Below, one piece after another: positions 6,013 to 61,800 of a stretch of DNA of 64,000 nt. The stretch spans positions 2,085,721 through 2,149,720 of the forward strand of contig CM120648.1 of the NCBI GenBank assembly GCA_051362555.1. The letters run 5' to 3'. Position 1 is the first letter of the stretch; the number at the start of each line of letters is the position of its first letter. A program made the position numbers and the translations under genes. The notes under the pieces are model-generated. The model worked only from the letters and a program-made list of their open reading frames with translations. It ran no database searches and was not told the origin of the DNA. Source of the stretch: Lingula anatina (lineage: Eukaryota; Animalia; Brachiopoda).

Positions 6013-6189
6013 CTGAAATTATAAGATAATATCTGGACTCTACAGATACCATGCTCAGTTGCTATTATTTACTGAACATTAAGCATTATTAGCATTGCTG
6101 ACACTTGTCTTGAGGTTGAATTTACTTATTATTTTATATTTCTTAAAGTTATCTTTTACAGCAGAATAATTGATGAAGCAAGCACCAAC

Positions 6190-6706: not shown

Positions 6707-6842
6707 CTTCCTGTCCTCAGCATTCATTGGCTCAGAGACCACATACTCCAGCATGAATATTATGGACATCATGGGGTCCTCCACCATACCATCTAGTGGG
6801 ATACTGTTCCTCAGGACTAGAGACACACAACTGGAACTGCCA
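6707..6842 (-). CDS. NPHP4: NPHP4 exon 8
   Basis: GSSSCVSLVLRNSIPLDGMVEDPMMSIIFMLEYVVSEP; matches [31 protein letters not shown]. Phase 2-0. Confidence 0.92.
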
Positions 6843-7046
6843 CTACAGTGGATAATACAGAGGTATGAATTAATACAACCTAATATCTAATTATACTGTT
6901 TCCTCAGGACTAGAGACACACAACTGGAACTGCCACTACAGTGGATAATACAGAGGTGTGAATTAATACAACCTAATATCTAATTATACTGTTTCCTCAG
7001 GACTAGAGACATACTAGTACATCTGGACAGCCACTACAGTGAATAA
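6802..7046. repeat. 93-bp tandem repeat (~2.5 copies) spanning the NPHP4 exon 8 acceptor
   Basis: TACTGTT(T)CCTCAGGACTAGAGACACACAACTGGAACTGCCACTACAGTGGATAATACAGAGG... repeats at ~6802 and ~6894, with a diverged copy at ~6988. Confidence 0.9.
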
Positions 7047-8637: not shown

Positions 8638-8822
8638 TTTTGCGATGGCCCCTGTTTTCCGCTGGACGTATCCTCCATTTCTCCCTCGTACTTAAATATC
8701 CTGACCATTCCCCAGCCACAGGACCTGTGTTTCTTGTGGCCATTTTTATCATAACTCACGGCCACCAGTTCCACCACCAGGACAATACTCAGGTCATTGA
8801 GAGTGGTGTGGAAGTAGACATT
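8638..8822 (-). CDS. NPHP4: NPHP4 exon 3
   Basis: NVYFHTTLNDLSIVLVVELVA...SCGWGMVRIF; matches [20 protein letters not shown]...SCGFGILRIF. AG/GTGAGT boundaries, phase 0-2. Confidence 0.95.
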
Positions 8823-9175: not shown

Positions 9176-9319
9176 CTGATTAAAATTAACTTTAAATTTC
9201 TGTCCTGTTGACTTGGCTGTGCTCTCTGGTCCTATCCACGTCCTTCCAAAGAACTGCTTGTACGTTACATCAAACAGACTGAGCCGTAACTGGTAGTGGA
9301 CGCCCTTTTTATCCTCATC
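9176..9319 (-). CDS. NPHP4: NPHP4 exon 2
   Basis: TTTCAG|DEDKKGVHYQLRLSLFDVTYKQFFGRTWIG...NFNQ|GTATTG; matches NPHP4 LRVSFFDVTYRHFFGRTW. Confidence 0.95.
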
Positions 9320-9469
9320 CTGAAAGCAGAGAGAACAACAAGCTTCTGATCAGAAATAAACTGGTAAAACTACTCTGTAGCCAGGTAGACTTCTACTAAA
9401 TAATGCAGAAACAAGTTGAAAGAAATAACTGACAAATAAGAAAAAAAAAAAAGACGTTGAAATACCAAC

Positions 9470-9745
9470 CAGGTTCATCTCCTCCAAACCCTGAACATTT
9501 TTCAAAGTCAGTTCAAAGGGAGCAGAGTCCTGGGGGTCTGCTGCATTAAAATATCTCCTGAAGTTAGGCTGGAGCTGACGTTTCGTCTCTAAGTAATCTG
9601 CAGCCACTTTCAGCTGCTCTTCCGCAGACTCTCTCCAAGGTTCAAAGAATCTTATTAGTTTTTTGCTGCTTGTTGAATGTGACTTGGTCTCGTTAAAACT
9701 TGGCACAGTCAGCCATGTTGATGAGTTTGTGATGGCGTCATCCAT
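9470..9745 (-). CDS. NPHP4: Candidate alternative first coding exon (1b) of NPHP4
   Basis: 92-codon open frame from ATG 9745 to a phase-0 donor CTG|GTTGGT, 150 nt upstream of the exon 2 acceptor. Its C-terminal part (RRYFNAADPQDSAPFELTLKNVQGL) aligns by eye with exon 1a (DRQKRAEEDSYPFCLSIKIIDGI). Confidence 0.65.
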
Positions 9746-12700
9746 TTTCAATCTATATCATTTTTTTGCTATATAATTCAATACTAGTACCTTAAAGTGG
9801 ATACAAAACCATAAAAGCACTGGTACATTTCTCAGTGTCAGTGTCATAGCGTTCATTTTATTCAGCCAGCTATCATTATATTTAGTGTTATAAACACAAT
9901 GAGAATACACTGTTCCCGCTTTACATTTCATCTGTCAGCCATTATCTCATTATCTCCCACTTCACACAGGAACATCATAACATTATCAGTATTTAGCACC
10001 CCAGGTTTCTTTCACCAGATGCTTTCAACGAGATATTTGTACCTCAGCAGGCTCTGTGAAAAGAATATATATATATATATATTCGCCGATCAAAATTGGT
10101 TTTAGAAAATGCCATCCCATCCCATCCTGCCTCCAACAATTCATGTTTGAATCCTCACAATTCATGTTCCTTTCTCATCTAGAAAATCATATCTCCATCA
10201 ACACTCAAATATGGCTGAATTAATGCTGAGTATCATTAATATTCTAAGAAAAAAATCAACTAAGTTAATGCTTTTGAATCTACTCCCACCTTAACAATCA
10301 TAATATGATAATAATATTTAGTAACATAAAAATAATAAAATTCTGCACTAAACAAAAGCTCCTGCAATTTTCCTCAGAGCACTAATGAAATCCAAACAAA
10401 AAAAAACATCATGAAAACAGCTCTAAGCTGCATCAGTCACCTTCAGCTGTTCCTGCCAGTGTATTAACCCAACAACGCAATATCCTCTGGTAGTTTTCAC
10501 AGTACAATACCCCATTAAGCAAACAAAGAAAGAAAAAAAGTAATTCCATTACTAGTAATCCTTTTAAAGCTTTGGCACCTGACAGTCGTGACTGATTGAT
10601 GTATCTCCCTCTATTGAGTGAAATAAAAATATTCTGCAAGGCACGCCTCACTTCAGATCCATCATGTTCCAATATACTAAAATAAGAGAAGGAAAAAAAA
10701 AGAAAGAAACAGACCATTAAACCTACACAGTGTGTGCTCTGTGCTGTTTATTTCCTGTCTGGTGAGCGTCCTTACCTACACACTATAGTCATAAATCTCC
10801 AGGTGAACAATTCAAGTAATTGAAGATGTATGTTTTCTGCTTAGCCTCATAAATCAGGGCTTGCACATAAATATCAACCTTTTGGTAATAGTGTTTTCTT
10901 GGAGTACCTACTAGTATAAAACCTAAAGTTCTACATCCTGATATACAACTCTGTAAATAATATACAAGCTCCTTCCTCACAGGCAGTTTGAAAAACAAAA
11001 TAACTGTCTCAGTAATACTAATACACAATCAATGTAGAATGTCTCTTCTGTTTAGTCACTTACATTTTTTCAGCAGACTACTACTACTACTACTATCTTT
11101 CAAACAATGACAGATCTAGGGATGGGTGTGGGGTTGGGGGGGGGGTGCACAGTGGACATGTGCCTCTCACTTACTTTGTGACTTGTGAGGCAGTACGGTA
11201 CCCCAACCTCCCTATCAAAACCAAGCAATTTCCCCATCACTGTGCCCCACATATCACAGTTACATTGCCCTAACTTCAGTTGTTTCATATCATACTCTTT
11301 ATTTTTGCCTCACCCAATCCTACTTAAACAAAATCCTGAATCCAGCTGTATAAAACTCAGCTTTTGAAATAAAAATGATTCAACTCCCCCTCAAATGTAA
11401 ATTCCAAACTGCAGGATGAATAGAAAACATCAAAACTGATATACTAGTACTTGCACACTACTGCTCAGATGAGAGGCTTTAAAAAAATACCAAAACAGAC
11501 CTTGGTACTGAATCAGCTATTCCACACCCTGGCCTTGAAGAACAATTCCAAAATTAATATTACATTTATCATCCCTGCATAATACATCCCAAGTACAAAA
11601 CTTTGAGAAAAAAACCACTATGGACCCTCCGGGCACTGCGCTGGCTCTTCCACGCCTTGGAGGTTGAGAAAAATATCCAAACTGATACTTGCACTGAAAG
11701 TTGTCTCTCTGGTCTACAGACAGCTTAAAAACATGGAACTGATGATGCTTTGAGTAATAAATAATGAAAATCAAAAACCCTGCCACATCTACTAGTTGAA
11801 GATGCCGTGCCTTTGCATTTCCACAGTAAGCAATCTCCCACTGGATCAGCACAAACAAATTGGTTGTCATGGCAATCTCACAAACCACAAGAGAATGATT
11901 GAGAACTTTGTGCCTGACAGATTTTAAAATAACCCTAGCTGACCTTTAACTAACAGCCTCAGGGTTAAGAAATTGAGAAGTCATTGCTGACACAGGTAAG
12001 TTTTTGTAATTTTAATTAAAATTTGACCTTCAGGCAGAGTATATAGTGCACACTTGTGGTTACTAGTAACTGTTTTCAAGTCAATTTTGCTGAAGAGAGA
12101 CAGAGAACAATTTGAATTTGTTTTGATAATTTTTTTCCATTTTGCTACCAATTTGAATGACTTCTAAAAAAAACTGCTTTTGTTAGAGATTGGTGAATAT
12201 TGATCGCAACCTTAGGTAATTGCTGCATTACAGCAGTAGCCCATTACTTGATCTATTGTTTCTCCTCTGTAATATCACACTCACGTCTACTGGATGAATC
12301 AGAAAACTCACCTTCTGCTTTTGTTTACCTTTCATTTCTCATTAATTGGATAAAAAAATAATGCTGGACTCAGTGAGCCTAAAACTGGTCACAAAAACTA
12401 AAAATACATCTCTGTCATGTAGTAATGCTGTTACTTAAAGATATAAATTTAAAGATATAACATGTACTAGTATCAAGTAGGGACTTAAGCATACTAGTAC
12501 TACTACTAGTAGGCAGATCTACTACTAGTAAGTAGTTGGTTAAAATTGTTACCATTATATATACAAAGTAAATCTACCAACGTTTACTTTTAGTCAATAT
12601 TTAACTGTCAGCAACATGTTCTTGTTAACTTCAATTTTCTTACATTGGTTTATTTCCGTTGACTTAATACCATTTGTAAAGAAGTTTACCCTGTATTTAA

Positions 12701-15700
12701 AACAAACTTTACTTACTGCAAACAACAGGTCAGTTGAATTTCAGTGGACTATACAAAGACCTTCCCGATAAGAAAATAAATGTGTTCTGCTCCTATACAA
12801 ATTTCAATGTAAAATGCCGATACTTGGAATATACCCAGGTTCATAATGGACAGAAATTGTGTTTTTTTTCTCAATATTTTATGGCTATGCAATAAGTAAT
12901 TATCTACCTAATAAAACTAAGATAAATAAAAAAATAAGCTGTTACAATCTAAATAATTTTTTCACAGAGGTTACTTTGTGGTGGTTTTCCTCAAATATAA
13001 TTCTAGTACATCATGTCAAGATAGTAGCTGGCATCTCTTGGTTTTTCAATGAAAAGGAGCTGGACAAGGTTCCCTTGAGACAACACTGCAATTTATTGAT
13101 TTCTTGGCCTATCATAAATAATGAAAATGACACCAGAGTCAAGATCTAATTACACCAAAAGCCAATATAGAACAATGAATCAGCACATTACCTGTAATGA
13201 TGATTTTCTGGCTTAATTAAATTATTACATGAGAAGATGTGTAGAAGAACATGTTGACCTGCTCAGAATCCACTCAGTGTAACTGAAATAACCTGCTAGC
13301 TTTATGATTCACTTTTCCTTGTGCTAGTACTAGTAAATCAGCAGGGGCAGATGGAAACCGTCTTCTGGAAGACAGTCATAATTTTTAACTTAACTAGTAC
13401 ATTAATGGGCATGTAATTTTGAAAATGTCAGAAAATATATCTGGATCAGCCTCTCAACCGGGGTGGGTAAACTACAGCCAGGATCTAGGTGTGGACCACA
13501 AACGTGCCTCTTACCATGAAGTGTTTATAAATTAGCTGTTCTCTTCTGATATAACTTAATCTGCCTTGTCACTTAAAGTTGTAAATTTTAAAACTTTGTA
13601 ATCTTATCGACTGTGGGAGCTGCTGTAATGGCCACAGATTTAGTGTTGTGTAAACTTGTACTCTTTACCGCATAATGTGGCCAATGGAGAAGCTGTACAA
13701 AACTTAATTCAACTTTCAGTTTAGATAAAACCCTTCAATGACAAGGGCTGAATGCAGATAATTGAACAAACTACAACACTGTCCACTAACACTTGCACTT
13801 GAATCCAGGGATGGCTAACCTTTTCACCTATTGCTAAATCACTTGCAATAAATATCTCAAAAAAAAAAAAAAAATCTAATTCGAAAGTAAAACGTCTTTA
13901 AAAATCACAACACAGTACATTAAAGTATGATATAGTTTCAAAAGCCTAATTATCACTTCACCTTGCTTTATACACATTCACCATAGTATAACATATTAAT
14001 TTAGCCTCATATTGTGAAAACTGAAAACATCAAACTTCCAAATGAATTTACTGACAATTCTCTCCAATTTCCACATGATTTACTATTTCTGTGTCACTGC
14101 TTTCAGCTCATCCATCTTGGAACATTCAACTGATTGTAATTGCAATTCCCACCATCAGTTTTAATCCAACCGGCTACGCTACCATTAACATGAGAAAGAA
14201 AGGCATACTAGTTACCAACTCGTAACAAGATGAAACCCTTCTAAACTCCTATTTTTTCCAAACCCCATCAATTAAATCCAATTACTGTAGGTTGGTGAGC
14301 ATCTCCCTGAATCCCTGTATTCCACTCTGGTGAATGTTCTCTCCTGAGCCAGCTTCTCGTTAGTGGATCACATTGCCTAGAAGAAGGTAAGGCAGCAATG
14401 GGCTAATCTCATTGGCTCAGGTAAACGTTCCCCGCCAAACGTGTACTAATCTCCTCATAAAACTGCGATGCTGCTGTATTAAGAAATGACACTGGCTAAT
14501 AAACAGTCAAGCTAACTCACACACTGTGTATGTGTGTACAGTATGTATACGGTTAGACTGGGGTTTACCTGGGTCCAACACAACATGAGGATGTATTTAC
14601 ACTTAACCCAAAGACATCACTTCTAACTTCATACAAGGATGTAAGGACCTTTTAGGGGCTCTGCTTAGACTGTACGCTGTGTAGGTTTCATTTTAGAAGC
14701 AATCTTGTCAACAAATTTAGGAAGACTCAGAAAAACCAGTATTGGCTTGCATTTCTCGTCTGGTTGATGCTTCTCTGTTTCACCTTGCCAGGTATGTTCT
14801 TTTTCTTCTTTTATCCTGTTTTTTTCAGAAAAAAAATAGCTTCCAGCAGCTTTATGTTCTGTTCTCTATGCAGAAGTGATCTTATTAAATGTTGAGTGAA
14901 CTGCCAATGGAACGTTCCCCTACTAAAGAGTGATCCTATTAAATGTAGTGTGAACATGCCCAGTAGAGAGTCCACCAAGTCAACAACCTGTGTTGAGAGG
15001 CATAACAAGCAACTGATTTAAGCAAACAGACTGTAGTTGATAAACAGAAGTTCTTTGAATCACTATCAAACTACAATCAAACCATTTGTTTTTTTATGTT
15101 GACTTTCCATTTAAATGGGAGAATACAAATTTATACAATTCTTTTTTTTCCTGAGGCCCTAATTCTTTGCATGTATTCAAATCCAGATATTCTATCCCAG
15201 TCAGGTGTTTACAGGTAACTCTAGTTTAATCTGTTGACTGCAATCTAACACCTCATAATATTTATCAGTCATCCTGGAGACGCAGTTGACTTTGAGAAAT
15301 CAGGTCACTGTGAGGTCACAATGACAAAAGAATACCGCTACTATTTGAAAATCTTGTTAACACTGAATTGCTACTTAAATTGCTACATTAAAAAAAAAAT
15401 ACTTTTCTACAGGACACTAAGTAATGTTTGGTTTGAATGTGTGAACTGAAGGAAAACTGAATGAAATGCCAAGATTTAGAAACCAAATACTATTCAAGCA
15501 ATGAATGCAATCTGCTAGTGAAGGTAACAGTTTGAAAACATTTGATTAACAGAATTAGGCTGTTTTCATTTAAAATTTATTTTTGAAACTTATTCAGTAT
15601 ATAAATTTCTTATATTTATTTCATTAAACTATTTACAGTAAATCATAAACATTTTCTGTGCATTACAAACAAAATTCTGAGATAGAAAATGCCCAACTCA

Positions 15701-17530
15701 TGTTGAACCCATCTCATGTTGAAGCTGAGGTAGACCTCTACATGGTTTTAAGAGGCCTAGGGCTATAAAAAACACAGCAAAACAAGTGTAGGTCGTGGTC
15801 CCACCCAGAATTAATACCATTTTTATTATGGTTACACAGCCAAACAATGCACTTAATGTTTTATGATACTAGCTTCTGGCACATTTATAGAAATACAGGG
15901 CTTAATTTTACAATGCATGATGAAAGAGTAACACTACTACACACTGTCCTTTTAAATCATTGATTTCCATTTTTTCATAAACCTACTAGAACTAGTACAG
16001 ATTCAGATATAGTTTAAAAACTTTGTTAGTCTTGTTAAGAATTTAAAAATGGTTTCCACAAGAAATAAATATGCCCATATGCAACAACCATGCATACAAA
16101 GGCACACACTGATACACACACATGCACATGTACAGTATGCAAAATGTTAACAGATTTGCCACGCAGTTTACAAACACTTAATTTAACAACAGCTCCAGAC
16201 TGTTTGTTTACTCCAGTAACGTTATCACTAAGCAGACCTGATAGCACTTCAATAACTGAAACCTTATACAAAACATTAAATCCAATAAATCTGCTTAGTA
16301 TTCAACTCCATACTGACAGAGATTAAGAATACCTTGAACTCAGCAACACAGAATGTTTTAGATTGGATTTGCTGGAACAGCTCAACTATCACACTCTAGT
16401 GTGTGATAGCATGAAGCTAGAGTGCTTTAAAGATTTTGGACTGCTTTGCTAAAGATACAGGACTACTGTACCAGTAACTGCTTGCTAATATAATAATAGC
16501 CACAAAATTCAATATGAAATCTCCAATAATTAAAAATAACCTTGTGAGGCCCATTTTGACAATACATGACATTTTTTCTAGTCTTGTAATGGATTGCTAC
16601 ATATAAATGTGAAATTTGGAATACATCAAGAGATCTTGTGTATGATCAGTGTATGACTGTGTAAAGGCAAAGGCGAGTGATTTGTAGATTTGATAGTAGT
16701 GTTTCACATCAGTTGGTAAGTTGTAACTGTGGGGCGACTGATGCCACTTGCGCAATACCCAGTGCAACTGCCTCTATGTGCACATTGCTATAAACTAAAT
16801 TTCTACCTTAGCTGACTTTTTTTTTTTATGGGACCGCATAGCCACACATTTTCAATATTGCTCAATTTTCACTTCCAAAATGATCGGATTCATATATGAA
16901 GTTTTAAAGCCAAAACTGTACTTGTGTGACAAAAAAAAAAAAAATAAATAAATAAAAAAATAAAAAATTGCACATCAATGTACGCTTGATATCATCAAAT
17001 GACTTAAGCATTGGAAAAACATCTGGTTATTTATACAAAATGTACAACATGGGTTGTTTTTCAAAATGGATTCTGTGAAGTTTAGTTATGTACTACACAC
17101 AGAAAACAAACCCCTTTGTTTGGCCCACTAATTACACGTAAAATATTTTTTTGTACGAATCTTTTTTTCTTCTGTGTGATGAAACTCAGATGCTTGATGC
17201 CTGTACTTTTTATGTTCCAGTAATTTAAACATTCAATAAAAAGCCAGAAATACCACACCATTGTGCATGCAGTTATTGGTTAATTTGAGTATGAGCAATC
17301 ATAAAAGACTAAAGGATCACCAAAGAGTGGAGACGGGAAAAACGGACCCAAGCTTACAGGGGTGTGGGCACTTATCTCGTGCAATTTGTAACATGGACCT
17401 TCTAAGATCTCTAAACCTGCGAAAACGGAAAGAGGATATCAAACTTAAACAAGAGTTATAGCAACTTGGTTAGAGAAAGAGGAGAGCCTGCCGACAACAG
17501 AGGCAGATTACACACGCCGCTTTTACTAAC

Positions 17531-17662
17531 CTTGATTGGAATTCCATCGATAATTTTTATGGAAAGGCAAAACGGATAACTATCTTCTTCTGCTCGTTTT
17601 TGCCTATCATAGGGTGGCGGTATTATGGGGTTTTTCTTGATAAAATCCTTCCAAGTTGCCAT
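17531..17662 (-). CDS. NPHP4: Nephrocystin-4, first coding exon (1a)
   Basis: ATG at 17662. MATWKDFIKKNPIIPPPYDRQKRAEEDSYPFCLSIKIIDGIPIK resembles the human NPHP4 N-terminus ([20 protein letters not shown]...ESTAFQCVLKWLDG). Ends AAG|GTTAGT, phase 0, in frame with exon 2. Confidence 0.9.
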
Positions 17663-17991
17663 ATTTCATTTTGTTGCAACGGACGCACCGGATGTAAATA
17701 ATAACACAAAAGAAGTGTTGCTCATTTATATATTTTAAAATTGTAATGCAACCGACAAATTTATTATTTGAACGGGTTCTTAATGCTTAATGCAACAAAA
17801 AGTAAATTTTACTGACAAATGTAGATGAAATATTTGCAATAAATCACGGTTGTCTATTCTATTTTAGGTGAGCTATGACTTTGCGGTTTGCTATTTATGC
17901 TGTTGGGTATGTGACGTCATCAGTGGAATTCCCTCAAAACAAAGAAGATGCGTGTGTTTCGTCTCTATTTTGGCTGACTTCACGATAGAAG
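17663..17991. promoter_or_regulatory. Bidirectional promoter between NPHP4 (-) and PIGP (+)
   Basis: Head-to-head ATGs ~330 bp apart. Contains an ETS-type ACCGGATGT (~17687), RFX-like GTTGC half-sites (~17656-17685) and a perfect CRE TGACGTCA (17912-17919). Strand composition skew flips here. Confidence 0.75.
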
Positions 17992-18073
17992 ATGCCGGAG
18001 CAAAAACCTAGCCCCTCTCCTGAAAGAGCCATTTATGGTTTTGTGTTGTATCTAGGGTCATTTCTAGCACTAG
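17992..18073 (+). CDS. PIGP: GPI-GlcNAc transferase subunit P, exon 1
   Basis: MPEQKPSPSPERAIYGFVLYLGSFLAL carries the PIG-P N-terminal motif PSPxPERAIYGFVL. Donor G|GTAAAT. Confidence 0.95.
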
Positions 18074-18368
18074 GTAAATTACAGATTAAGTAAAGTGTAC
18101 CGATTTCTGACTTTCATTGTGTTTGAGTCTGTCTGTAGTGTATCATCGAAGATGACATCTAGATCTAATTATCTGCTGGTACAATTAAGTAGTTTTGTCT
18201 GCTGCTGCTACTGTTACGACTACCAGTTCTAGGCCTACCTTTTAACTAACTCCAAAGTGTAGATCTAATAAAATAAATCTCAGGATGCACAACATTATAT
18301 GTTTATTATAACAATTGCATAACCTGGAACATTTTATTATGTATAATTTTTGCTCTTATAAATTATAG

Positions 18369-18441
18369 GGTTTTATTTAGTGTGGGCCTATGTGCCGGAT
18401 CCTTGGCTGGAATCTATAGGACTCACATACTTACCACAAAA
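18369..18441 (+). CDS. PIGP: PIGP exon 2
   Basis: FYLVWAYVPDPWLESIGLTYLPQK fits the PIG-P motif YLxWAxxPxxWLxSxGLTYxPQK. Phase 1-2. Confidence 0.95.
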
Positions 18442-20870: not shown

Positions 20871-21037
20871 TGTATTTTACCGCTCTAAATTGAAATCCGT
20901 GTTCTCCTTTCAATGAATGTAGAAATTTAATGGCAGTGACACAGTCTTTTGTGTGTGATGCCTAAAGCATTTTAGAAGGTAAACTGTCGAAAATGCTTGT
21001 AGATTTCAGGGTTCCGCGCTCGGATGAAGCGAGGAGC

Positions 21038-21226
21038 ATGTCGGAGTCGGTACAGCCTCGGCTTCCATTGCAAGAGCAGAAGAGCCAAAATCAAGAGAAT
21101 GATCCGCGTGCCGAGAGGAAGAAACGCCATGCTGCTGAGTCTTTTGTAGTAGACGTAGTGGCGAAGAAGTCCAGTTCTTGCCCGAATCTCCAAGAGGCTT
21201 TCTTGCGGTACAGGAAAAATCGACAG
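21038..21226 (+). CDS. First coding exon of an unidentified protein (MSESVQPRLPLQEQ...SCPNLQEAFLRYRKNRQ)
   Basis: CpG-rich, GC-elevated 63-codon frame with good ATG context (AGCATGT) and a perfect phase-0 donor CAG|GTGAGT. No downstream coding exon recognised in the window. Confidence 0.7.
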
Positions 21227-22248
21227 GTGAGTCGACTACCCCCCCTCTCCCCCGCCTTTACTCCAACTTGATTGCAATACCCTGTCCTGAATGAAGTGTT
21301 GTGAAATATTGTGTGAACACATTGCTGTATTTATTCTACATGAAATATTGTGTGTATACATTGTTGTACTTTATCTACATGCTTTAAAGTAGATGGAAAA
21401 CGAGGTTTATATCTTATAGCATTTAATTTTGCTTTGGTGTGTTAAATTAACATACTTCTTAGCTGTCATTCATTTTTACTATCATTTTCACAAGGCTGGA
21501 AAGGGTAGACTTTTTTGAGACCCTTCCCTTTCAAAGATATTAGAATATAATGTCAAATACTAAAAGTGATGACCTTGGACACATTTTGGATCATCTTTTT
21601 TATTATTTGCAGAGGGCCCTAATCCCCCCTCCCAGTGTACAGTTTGTCAACTCGTGAAAATTATTCTAAAAATGGATGACCCCTTAATACAAAGCAGAAA
21701 ATATTATAGATACCATGTCAATATACTCCACATACCTTAAAATAGATCAAAGTCCTGCAGCAGTGCTACACACATTTTAAGTTTCTTATCACACTTTCTT
21801 TCATGTAGCTAAAAAATCTGATCTCAACATAAGAAAGTGAATAACATTCCCTGCTTATCTGAATCTGTTGGAAAGTTGGTAAAAAAAAAGTCTCCATATA
21901 TATTCATGGTACATTTGGAAGACATTTATCTTTAATTGTTAATTTGGTGCCATACCAAAAAAAAAAAGTTAAAAAAATAATAATAAAATAAAAATAAATA
22001 GATAGATAAAATTAAAAATAATAATAATAAATAATAAAAAAATTAAAAAAATGATAAAAATTCTGGTACTGTAGACTCATTTCTAATAACTACTGGTAAT
22101 TCCTAATACCCTGACATATTCCAGGATTTCTTCAGACATGTGGACATCTGAGCTTGTGAGTTGTGAGGCTGTAGAAATTATTCATCCCTGTGATTAGGCA
22201 TGCTATATTGGTTTACCTTGTAGCTTGTGCATTAGACCTATATAGCAA

Positions 22249-58785: not shown

Positions 58786-58864
58786 CCACGGCTACTGCTA
58801 CTACCAGTGTAACCATGGTAACAAAAACCACGGCTACTGCTACTACCAGTGTAACCATGGTAAC
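58786..58864. repeat. 42-bp tandem duplication containing an X-box
   Basis: CCACGGCTACTGCTACTACCAGTGTAACCATGGTAAC occurs twice, 42 bp apart. Confidence 0.92.
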
Positions 58865-61800
58865 ATAACCAAGTAGCCACAATTCTTGTTGGGGAAACCG
58901 TTTCACTTCAAAGGAGGCCAGCAACAAAAATTGTGGAAAATTTCTAAGCACCTATAAGAAATGCTCCGAGCGAAGAAAAAGCCTTGAAAAAACTTTTCCT
59001 TCGGTAAGAGAGGCAATTGTAATCAGAGATTTTTGGATTCTGAAGGCATCTTACGTGACAGCATTAGATTTCAATGACAAAATTCTAATACTGTCAGGTA
59101 AAGATGTCAGCAGAGTTCTGTTACGACATGGCAGCCATCTTGAATACAACTTCGAAGATGTCAGCCAGGATGACGACCGACCGTATCCCAGGAAAGGTAT
59201 GACGTTGCGAAACTATGCCAAGAATGCAGTCTGTGACATAAATGGGATTTCCGTGGCAACAGATGGGAACATTGAGCAGTTACCATGGCAACGTCAACAA
59301 CAGTGGAGAGGAATTGGTTTTTGGAGTCCGTAATGTGCGTGGCAATGGTTCTTCCCCCTGCTGGTTTTCACATCCCAAGTGTCAGACCTGCGGCATTAAA
59401 ATGAAAAAGTAATGGTGCATATGGCGCAGTAAAAAGGGAGCAAATGCCCAACCTGACAGGCTTGGACATCTCCAACCAACTGTGCCGAATATATTTCCCC
59501 ACATCGTGCAAGTGTGAATGCATAATGTAGCAATCGGTGGAAATTTACGGCCCGTTGCTGTCTGTGGTCTGCTTTTGCATTCAGTGCACTGGCCTCCGGC
59601 ATCAAAGAGCCTCGAGGGCTCCCGGCTGATTGATTTCAAGCTGAATGGCCATAACCTGGACCATAGATAATCCTCCTCTCTGCCCTCCTCGCCGCCACTG
59701 CTATATTTGTGCTCTGAAGCATTTGTGTTGCGGGAAAGGACGTTTATGTGGTTAACCAGAGGAAGAGTTTTCTATTTCATTGATAGATTTGTGTGCTGTG
59801 GTTTCTTACTGTTCCCTCCATGATCTGTTTACAAAGAGTGATATTGGTAAACGGGCCCCCATGGTGCTTCACCACCTACCAGAGGATCTGTTTCTATCAG
59901 AGTTCATCGACTCTTTTCCACCGTGTCAAAAACTGCACATTTTTTAAAATGTGCATAAACATTTTAAGTGTGGGACCAGCATTTATGTAGTGAAATATTA
60001 AATAATTGTGTACAATAATGGGCTGCAAGAGAGATGGAAAAAAAGAGAGAGAGAGAATATGTTAAATTGTGTCAAATTCATGACATTCGTACATATGCAT
60101 ATTAACTTTTGCTTCATACTTGTATTGGCTTCGTAATTTACAGCCTTGTTCTGTTTTTTCCTGCACTTTTAATCTGCAGTGCATAAATTTCCCAATGGAG
60201 CAGTTACACGTTGTCGGTCTCCATGTGCATGCATCTTGCTTATTAGTTCATTGGGGTTAGGCAGGTTAGGTGCTTCTCTATAAGTCCATGTTACACTGGG
60301 AGTGGGGAGTCAGACAAGTTTGCTATAAATGATGTAGCACATTATGGTCAGAAATAATGCCACAATATACATGGGAGAGTAATACTGAAAAACAAAAAAA
60401 CAAAAAAAAAAAAACTGAAAGATGCTCTTACTAGTAGGTAGAATACACATCAGTGTATATACAATTCCAGGGCAGCCTAGCCAGGAAACATTACTCTACC
60501 TGTAGCAGTAAAGACATGGCTGCCCTTGTAATATCAAGTTGGGACCCCGAGGGAGCAATTCTGTTTCATATTCACTCCTGAAGCAATTAGTCAAGATGAA
60601 GTTAACATGTAAACCATTAAAATAATGCGTGTAGTTTTCTAGCATGTCTGTAGTTGTGTGACCTAACCTGGCACGACCCCTTCAGCTGACTACGATTAGC
60701 TCACCACTGGGCACCAAGCTGATCATATGTGATTTTCCCCAGGTATATTGGCTATAGGCGGGATAACAGAGAGGTTAGATAGAACACCTGTGGTTAGACA
60801 CTATGATACATTGTCTAATGTATTAGTACATATTAAATTAGGGCTCTTGCCCAATAAAACTATCGGTCAACATAGATTGATCCTTGCTGAATGCAACCAG
60901 ATTAACGATTACACGCCTACTTTTGTTTCCAACGTTCTACTGTAATCACCAGATTTTCTGTTTTCTACACAGAGCGGAGAGGAGTTGTGTTAATCTGACT
61001 GTGTACAGCGCGAGTCCCTGAGGAGTTGGATTGCTCTATGTAGTCTGTTTGTTTTGTTTTTTTTTGAGAATGAGCCCTTAGTCTGTTACGATTGTATTTC
61101 TACTGATAGATAACCTGACCTTACCCCATGAGACTTTTATATCTGTTACAAAGTTGGTGGGTGGGCAACAGAAAGAATAGATTTGCCACCTTTGGTGGTT
61201 TAATCGTAAACACAATGTGACAAATGACTGAAGTGTGTAATACTAAGTAAGGCAGGCCAATATTAACTAGAAACACTTCTTGAATCTCCAGTTAGAATAA
61301 GATTGGGAATTGCACCTGTCTTGGAGGAGGCTAGATGGATGCATTCCACCTGTTTAGTGCTTAGTACTTGATGTAGGAACAAATGGGCGGTGGCAGTCCT
61401 GGAGGTGAACTTGAACATGATGTAAAGGGAGGGTGCGGCAGCCATCTTGGTCAAGTTGTTTCCAGAATTCTGCTGAATAATTTTTCCAGCGAACATTGTT
61501 GGGCAGGATACATGTTAGGATATTAGAATTGTACTGTTTATTATTTTTTTCTATTTCTTCCATGGATATTATGAATTGATGAAGACATTTCGCTGTAGCA
61601 GGATGCATAGCAACAAAATTTGCAGCACTTAATAGAAAATAATGAGTTTCTTCCTTGTAGAGTTGTGACAAATATTATATATTGGTGAAGAAAATTGATG
61701 CTCTCATGTTTTATGAGGTACTTTGACTATGACATTTCCCTGTAAGCCTTCAAGTAGCCAGCAGCCCATGTGCTGGAATGTATAATAGACTTGTATTAAG

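Follow-up and report, generated by a model that had tools for sequence, protein, structure and literature searches.

Two first coding exons at the NPHP4 locus

The window, a 64,000-nucleotide stretch of Lingula anatina contig CM120648.1, contains NPHP4 on the minus strand. Within the window, two exons with start codons, here called 1a and 1b, lie in the same gene, strand and phase and are arranged in tandem before a single exon 2 (Table 1). Exon 1b sits inside intron 1 of the 1a isoform and comprises an extension of about 48 amino acids followed by a diverged copy of exon 1a. Its frame closes in phase 0 at 9470 with the donor GTTGGT, a hexamer that is also used at the end of a constitutive NPHP4 exon at 6189. 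An earlier note on this DNA had described a 92-codon ATG frame with a phase-0 GTTGGT donor 150 nt from exon 2, and these coordinates were confirmed. Its description of 1b as a first coding exon also stands, but 1b is probably not the first exon of its transcript.

Table 1. Exons, introns and candidate upstream elements of NPHP4 in the window
Feature	Position	Strand	Remarks
Exon 1a, coding part	17531..17662	-	44 codons; phase 0; donor GTTAGT
Intron 1 of the 1a isoform, harbouring exon 1b	9320..17530	-	8211 nt
X-box-like palindrome	12059..12070	.	Candidate RFX site of a 1b promoter; weak
Sense RNA patches upstream of exon 1b	10170-10319, 10420-10619, 11306-11639	-	X4, X5, X6; exon edges putative
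Exon 1b, 5' untranslated part	9746..10053	-	Sense depth to 10051 in X1, X5, X6
Exon 1b, coding part	9470..9745	-	ATG at 9745; 92 codons
Intron between exon 1b and exon 2	9320..9469	-	150 nt; GT..AG
Shared exon 2	9176..9319	-	48 amino acids; acceptor ctttcag; start 9319
Shared exon 3	8638..8822	-	Splice joint 9176-8822 in RNA reads

The gene matches NPHP4 over its full length, with 685 matches at E≤0.001. Most of the 120 matches listed are named nephrocystin-4, and among those listed the closest NPHP4 proteins are from an annelid (54%) and two nemerteans (49% and 47%), with molluscs at approximately 38-44%. The seven precomputed Pfam accessions of P0003 (1514 amino acids), the database model of the 1a isoform, are also those of named nephrocystin-4 proteins. 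A Pfam search of 1a, 1b and P0003 returned nothing above the cut-off, and no solved NPHP4 structure was found by sequence.

An automated database model, P0006 (1562 amino acids; NCBI, UniRef and nr), already represents the 1b isoform and belongs to the cluster of P0003. In P0006 a 1b part that differs from that of the window at four residues is joined to residue 45 and all later residues of P0003. Such automated models usually rest on RNA alignments. The mutual exclusion of the two N-termini that had been proposed is borne out by the models: P0003 and P0006 are identical past the swap, and none of 215 full-length models carries two exon-1-like stretches of at least 8 bits.

Other features were observed in the window. 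A recent 93-nt tandem repeat at 6801-7011 (2.3 copies, 98%) includes the acceptor of the NPHP4 exon at 6842 and the beginning of that exon, so that further acceptor-like copies lie upstream. A head-to-head transcript on the plus strand (17900-18441) starts near the exon 1a promoter, and the loose ends of reads at 18074 correspond to sequence beginning at 18370. A plus-strand frame at 20966-21271 has a donor-like site near 21227 and no Pfam match. Farther along, a perfect X-box-like site at 59279-59292 clusters with two near copies (58809-58822 and 58851-58864), hinting at the promoter of another ciliary gene; this site and the one in intron 1 were judged against an X-box consensus.

Exons 1a and 1b encode homologous peptides

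In the following, a-type denotes the short conserved start of NPHP4 and b-type the divergent start. Exon 1a encodes a conserved a-type N-terminus, scoring 53.7 bits on the a-type profile. Exons 1a and 1b encode homologous peptides: residues 50-87 of 1b align by BLASTP to residues 6-41 of 1a, with 11 of 38 identical (E=6e-5), and the 1a/1b similarity score was equalled by 4 of 20000 shuffles. Among 2952 six-frame segments of the window, 1b was the top non-self match to 1a (score 44, next 36). An HMM was built from 33 exon 1a peptides, all from other species. On this model 1b scored 22.3 bits, which was reached by none of 1000 shuffles (maximum 8.4), and ranked second of 2172 window segments, behind 1a itself. 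The profile similarity to 1a on which the earlier note had made its reading depend is thus present. A profile-profile alignment of a-types with b-types, made without the rows of the window, gave a probability of 95.9 (E 5.8e-9). The 27 b-types were also scored on a profile of the 34 a-types, from which the phylum of the b-type in question was not removed; 23 of them outscored at least 297 of 300 shuffles, and the four that failed to beat shuffles were those of Aplysia, Bulinus, Antedon and Lytechinus. Most b-types lack, in the corresponding column, a tryptophan that 33 of the 34 a-types keep.

At the DNA level the similarity of 1a and 1b was at chance, with 1852 of 2000 shuffles scoring as high; the copy is therefore old. 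Together with the profile score, this supports the old duplication of exon 1 that had been proposed. The parallel drawn at the time with the last 30 or so residues of 1b was real, but spans nearly all of 1a; the unrelated first part is about 48 residues long instead of about 60, as homology begins at residue 50. Searches with 1b by itself were negative: none of 32 candidates from a word search was a relative, HMMER against 1.84 billion representatives gave no match at E≤0.001, and the Atlas gave no usable match. This is explained by divergence and by clustering, because P0006 falls in the cluster of P0003.

Predicted structure of the two N-termini

AlphaFold models were obtained for the first 460 residues of the 1a isoform and the first 508 of the 1b isoform, with 71 aligned rows each. 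The 1a model has helices at residues 3-10 and 18-23 and a strand at 29-39. The 1b model has the same order, with helices at 37-54 and 62-65 and a strand at 75-85; pLDDT is 85-91 in the strand and under 50 for most of residues 1-59. When compared with dysferlin C2A, the C2 domain of the 1b model aligned from residue 73 (Z 12.6, rmsd 2.4, 125 aligned) and that of the 1a model from residue 28 (Z 13.0, rmsd 2.2, 124 aligned). Since solved C2 domains align from their first residue to model residue 73 or 28, exon 1 is predicted to supply strand 1. An alternative start would therefore need a copy of this strand, which would account for a conserved strand next to a free extension. The models support the earlier proposal that the opening strand of the N-terminal C2 domain can come from either exon; it is predicted at residues 29-39 in 1a and 75-85 in 1b. 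In passages of PMC3495828 and PMC5290278 a single N-terminus is described, with the N-terminal C2 spanning human residues 53-140, whereas the present models set strand 1 earlier, in exon 1, and in two alternative versions.

The same swap in other animals

Twenty clusters of NPHP4 proteins were picked by hand because they had multiple members or unusual N-termini (15 of 56 members were listed for Mytilus), and a- and b-type labels were assigned by eye. All other species are known here from protein models rather than DNA. Both types of start were present in 15 of the 20 clusters. At least 21 other species have both: two nemerteans, 12 molluscs, two echinoderms and five vertebrates, the last being the basking shark, bichir, reedfish and two lampreys. 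The isoforms part 20-25 residues ahead of an FFG motif (22 in the window), and after this point paired isoforms agree at 119-120 of the next 120 residues. No a/b pair was present in the remaining five clusters, namely Lytechinus (b only), Chiloscyllium, Scyliorhinus, Heterodontus and sturgeons. Among 59 tetrapod and teleost cluster representatives there was no b-type (54 a-type, five truncated or unscored), which is weak as evidence of absence. Both teleost representatives seen were a-type.

Conservation of the arrangement in relatives, which had been set as a test of the frame, is thus found in the protein models of at least 21 species. The earlier note had known of no such isoform in vertebrate NPHP4, and the same arrangement occurs in lamprey, basking shark, bichir and reedfish models. 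The novel extension that it described is not the conserved part, b-type first parts ranging from 53 to 261 residues.

The b-type extensions of shark, reedfish and lamprey (P0059, P0064, P0190 and P0105) have in common the N-terminal motif MD-x-(A/T)-x-(F/L)-x-A-(L/F)-S. By eye, this shared motif suggests orthology of these b-types, and it may possibly be a functional element. In Chiloscyllium punctatum (P0206) and Heterodontus francisci (P0219) the protein models begin only two residues before the end of the shark b-type exon, which suggests 1b transcripts with a broken or incompletely annotated frame in these sharks.

One duplication or several

A tree was built from 34 a-type and 27 b-type rows over 49 columns, which resolve the origin poorly; it omitted the rows of near-duplicate congeners (H. 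rufescens, M. edulis, M. galloprovincialis and L. planeri, and the a row of the reedfish). The free tree unites only 21 of the 27 b-types, with branch support of 29/84, and long b branches may attract each other and so inflate this grouping. Constrained histories were set up after the free tree had been seen. Of three such histories, a single duplication was best. A single b clade was not rejected (p-AU 0.099), and one duplication per phylum was rejected (p-AU 0.020 and 0.033). Independent origin in every phylum is therefore weakly rejected.

A functional second first exon could nevertheless have arisen repeatedly, for instance with one origin in lophotrochozoans and another in deuterostomes. 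This alternative carries an appreciable probability, though one well short of even. Two duplications were not rejected (p 0.16 and 0.29), nor was a clade uniting 1a and 1b of the window itself (p 0.55), whose likelihood was above that of the free tree. Profiles made with each phylum left out in turn sorted 14 b-types to b and 13 to a, leaving b-type orthology unsorted, and the grouping of b-types on the tree is weak. The extensions could not be aligned across phyla by eye, and 1b by itself found no relative. Any new promoter in intron 1 would have to bring a copy of C2 strand 1 for the protein to fold, and convergent tandem exon events are common according to excerpts of PMC9741552. Against repeated origins stand the rejection of one duplication per phylum, the two changes that the a/b label needs on the tree as compared with 20 for shuffles, and a swap boundary that is identical in every case. 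Vertebrate and echinoderm b-types moreover retain a P-[FY]-C motif that is replaced in vertebrate a-types. On balance we lean, by a little, towards a duplication that occurred once, near the base of bilaterians, with 1b likely lost in tetrapods.

Transcription of exon 1b

Seven of nine listed RNA runs with the same species label (X1-X7) were used, of which X1, X2 and X4 are stranded and X7 is unstranded. Exon 1b was transcribed on the NPHP4 strand in four of the seven (X1, X4, X5 and X6); its reads share mate orientation with exon 3 reads and are therefore sense. In X2, X3 and X7 depth over 1b was zero though exon 2 or 3 was covered. Sense depth in the exon 1a bin was 0.57, in X2 only (one of four runs), and X1 and X4 had depth over 1b and none over 1a; first-exon use of NPHP4 varies between RNA runs.

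In 50-nt bins, sense depth at 9470-9519 was 1.62 (X1), 6.82 (X5) and 4.08 (X6), and it dropped to 0.02, 0.12 and 0.04 in the next 50 nt past the 1b donor (9420-9469). This bin held 1, 0, 6 and 2 letters in the four runs binned in this way, and sense depth over 9320-9419 was zero in all four. The residual letters would correspond to one per crossing read, because the intron and exon 2 both begin with G. Opposite-orientation depth at 9420-9469 (X1 0.84, X3 0.42) coincides with a run of T and is probably stray. No splice joint 9470-9319 was found above the listing threshold in the RNA runs, where 1b depth is low (about 1-11), and likewise none was found for 17531-9319, which joins 1a to exon 2. 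Depth dips over 9270-9319 in all four runs, and reads from conserved genes may be dropped in mapping; the missing joints were therefore treated as non-decisive. The join of 1b to exon 2 is seen only in the database model P0006.

Upstream of its start codon, 1b has 13 ATGs in 308 nt, none of which runs into the 1b frame. An acceptor-like ttcttttcacag lies at 10054-10065, at the upstream edge of the untranslated part, and a repeat mask at 10052-10089 conceals the upstream edge of the sense depth. The patches within 10170..11639 are likely untranslated exons of the 1b transcript, and a donor-like AAG/GTGACT is found at 10441. In the stranded runs X1, X2 and X4 sense RNA reached at least 10619 upstream of 1b, the patch at 11306-11639 was present, and no sense RNA was present at 11640-17317. 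A promoter of its own within intron 1 and a spliced leader are therefore probable for exon 1b. The X-box-like pattern, which was chosen after the site at 12059-12070 had been noticed, matches the window only there, and 5 of 100 shuffles had a match. Elsewhere in intron 1, at 14312-15313, X7 (a more diverged allele) shows depth up to 1.65 that is absent from X1, X2 and X4. The X7 depth raised the idea of a third coding first exon at 14.3-15.3 kb, which was set aside; the sole ATG-to-donor frame of at least 15 codons there has 22 codons and ends at 14521.

Reads over the 1b frame contain 11 variants, eight synonymous and three non-synonymous, with no indel among the variants listed. This corresponds to a pN/pS of 0.10 (p 3e-4, with individuals pooled and transition bias ignored); in exon 3, for comparison, 15 of 16 variants were synonymous. 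Exon 1b might still be a decaying copy, in which a leaky promoter yields spliced RNA and, owing to the upstream ATGs, little or no protein. The 13 upstream ATGs, the low depth and the two shark models that start only at the last methionine of the b-type exon would fit such a copy. The low pN/pS, a frame that is intact though DNA similarity to 1a is gone, depth over 1b without depth over 1a in X1 and X4, and open b frames retained in 21 species speak against it, and we consider it improbable. It is very improbable that the frame arose by chance within the intron and that the isoform in the database is a gene-prediction artefact: the joint 9470-9319 is absent from the joints listed and another ATG frame, of 83 codons, ends at a GT-like site in the same intron, but the profile score, the depth edge at the donor with the empty intron beyond it, the synonymous excess, the predicted strand and the recurrence across phyla all contradict it.

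Discussion

Exon 1b is best read as a transcribed, diverged copy of exon 1 that likely has its own promoter and, substituting for 1a, is likely spliced to exon 2, a reading to which we give a probability of about 0.8. The product would be a second full-length NPHP4 with its N-terminal C2 domain predicted to be intact, in which either 1a or 1b provides strand 1 of the C2 sandwich together with the short helices that precede it. Use of one exon would exclude the other through promoter choice, because each brings its own start codon and because 1a joined to the 1b acceptor meets a stop after 13 codons.

Portions of two studies report that NPHP4's C-terminal half suffices for basal-body targeting in Xenopus multiciliated cells (PMC4674276) and that KIF13B binds the central, not the N-terminal, C2 domain (PMC5290278). 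The swap therefore likely alters contacts and not localisation, and basal-body targeting would be spared. The swap would change the surface of the first C2 domain, drop the tryptophan of the a-types and add a flexible arm, and in some cell types it would thereby alter which partners are bound or how the membrane is contacted. A literature search did not turn up the region of NPHP4 that binds NPHP1.

That the cells using 1b are sperm or motile-ciliated cells, as had been suggested, is a guess which we rate at just under even. Sperm is a fair candidate because mouse Nphp4 is needed for sperm count and motility, according to parts of a review (PMC7921155). The fuller scenario, in which a single bilaterian duplication gave a fast-evolving sperm or motile-cilium isoform that tetrapods lost and that nemerteans, molluscs, echinoderms, lampreys, sharks and bichirs kept, is conceivable and rather doubtful. 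If true, transition zones would be tuned to cilium type by swapping one strand and an arm of a core gate protein.

NPHP4 belongs to the core proteins of the transition zone, and the gene is implicated in disease of kidney, retina and sperm. To our knowledge, it has been studied almost only in species with seemingly one N-terminus. A second N-terminus across phyla offers a concrete route by which one gene could build differing ciliary gates in different cells. A zebrafish line with a frameshift in nphp4 exon 1 has mild phenotypes and mostly normal pronephric cilia, as described in parts of PMC9759334. If zebrafish had retained 1b, the frameshift would be bypassed, which may be one explanation for the mild phenotypes. 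A second first exon or isoform of NPHP4 was not described in the literature searched, which included PMC3495828, PMC10771650 and PMC12109206, though supplements of these and subscription papers could mention it. NPHP4 1b is likely an old, overlooked isoform.

A duplicated 5' coding exon with an alternative promoter is a known class. In excerpts of PMC8373072 and PMC9741552, N-terminal substitutions derived from tandem exon duplication account for 39-40 of 236 human events and are mostly ancient and often tissue-specific. NPHP4 1a and 1b resemble this class in having homologous N-termini from a duplicated 5' coding exon. The supplement of the human catalogue (PMC8373072) includes FYN, GNAO1 and DYSF and does not include NPHP4. 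Unlike the events of that catalogue, the NPHP4 swap is seemingly retained outside tetrapods and missing from the tetrapod models examined, and 1b is unusual in its taxonomic breadth and apparent loss in tetrapods.

The closest parallel to NPHP4 1a/1b is the duplicated first exon of dysferlin, where C2A and C2A variant 1, as in NPHP4, arise from two homologous alternative first coding exons that open an N-terminal C2 domain. The dysferlin C2A variants differ in calcium dependence. C2A variant 1 (4IQH) was among the top structural matches of both NPHP4 models, and the supplement of PMC8373072 dates the N-terminal tandem-exon event of DYSF to Vertebrata. Dysferlin C2A binds calcium (PDB title 7JOF). 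The DYSF exons encode 29-30 amino acids and have no extension, while NPHP4 1b adds about 48 amino acids and is far more diverged.
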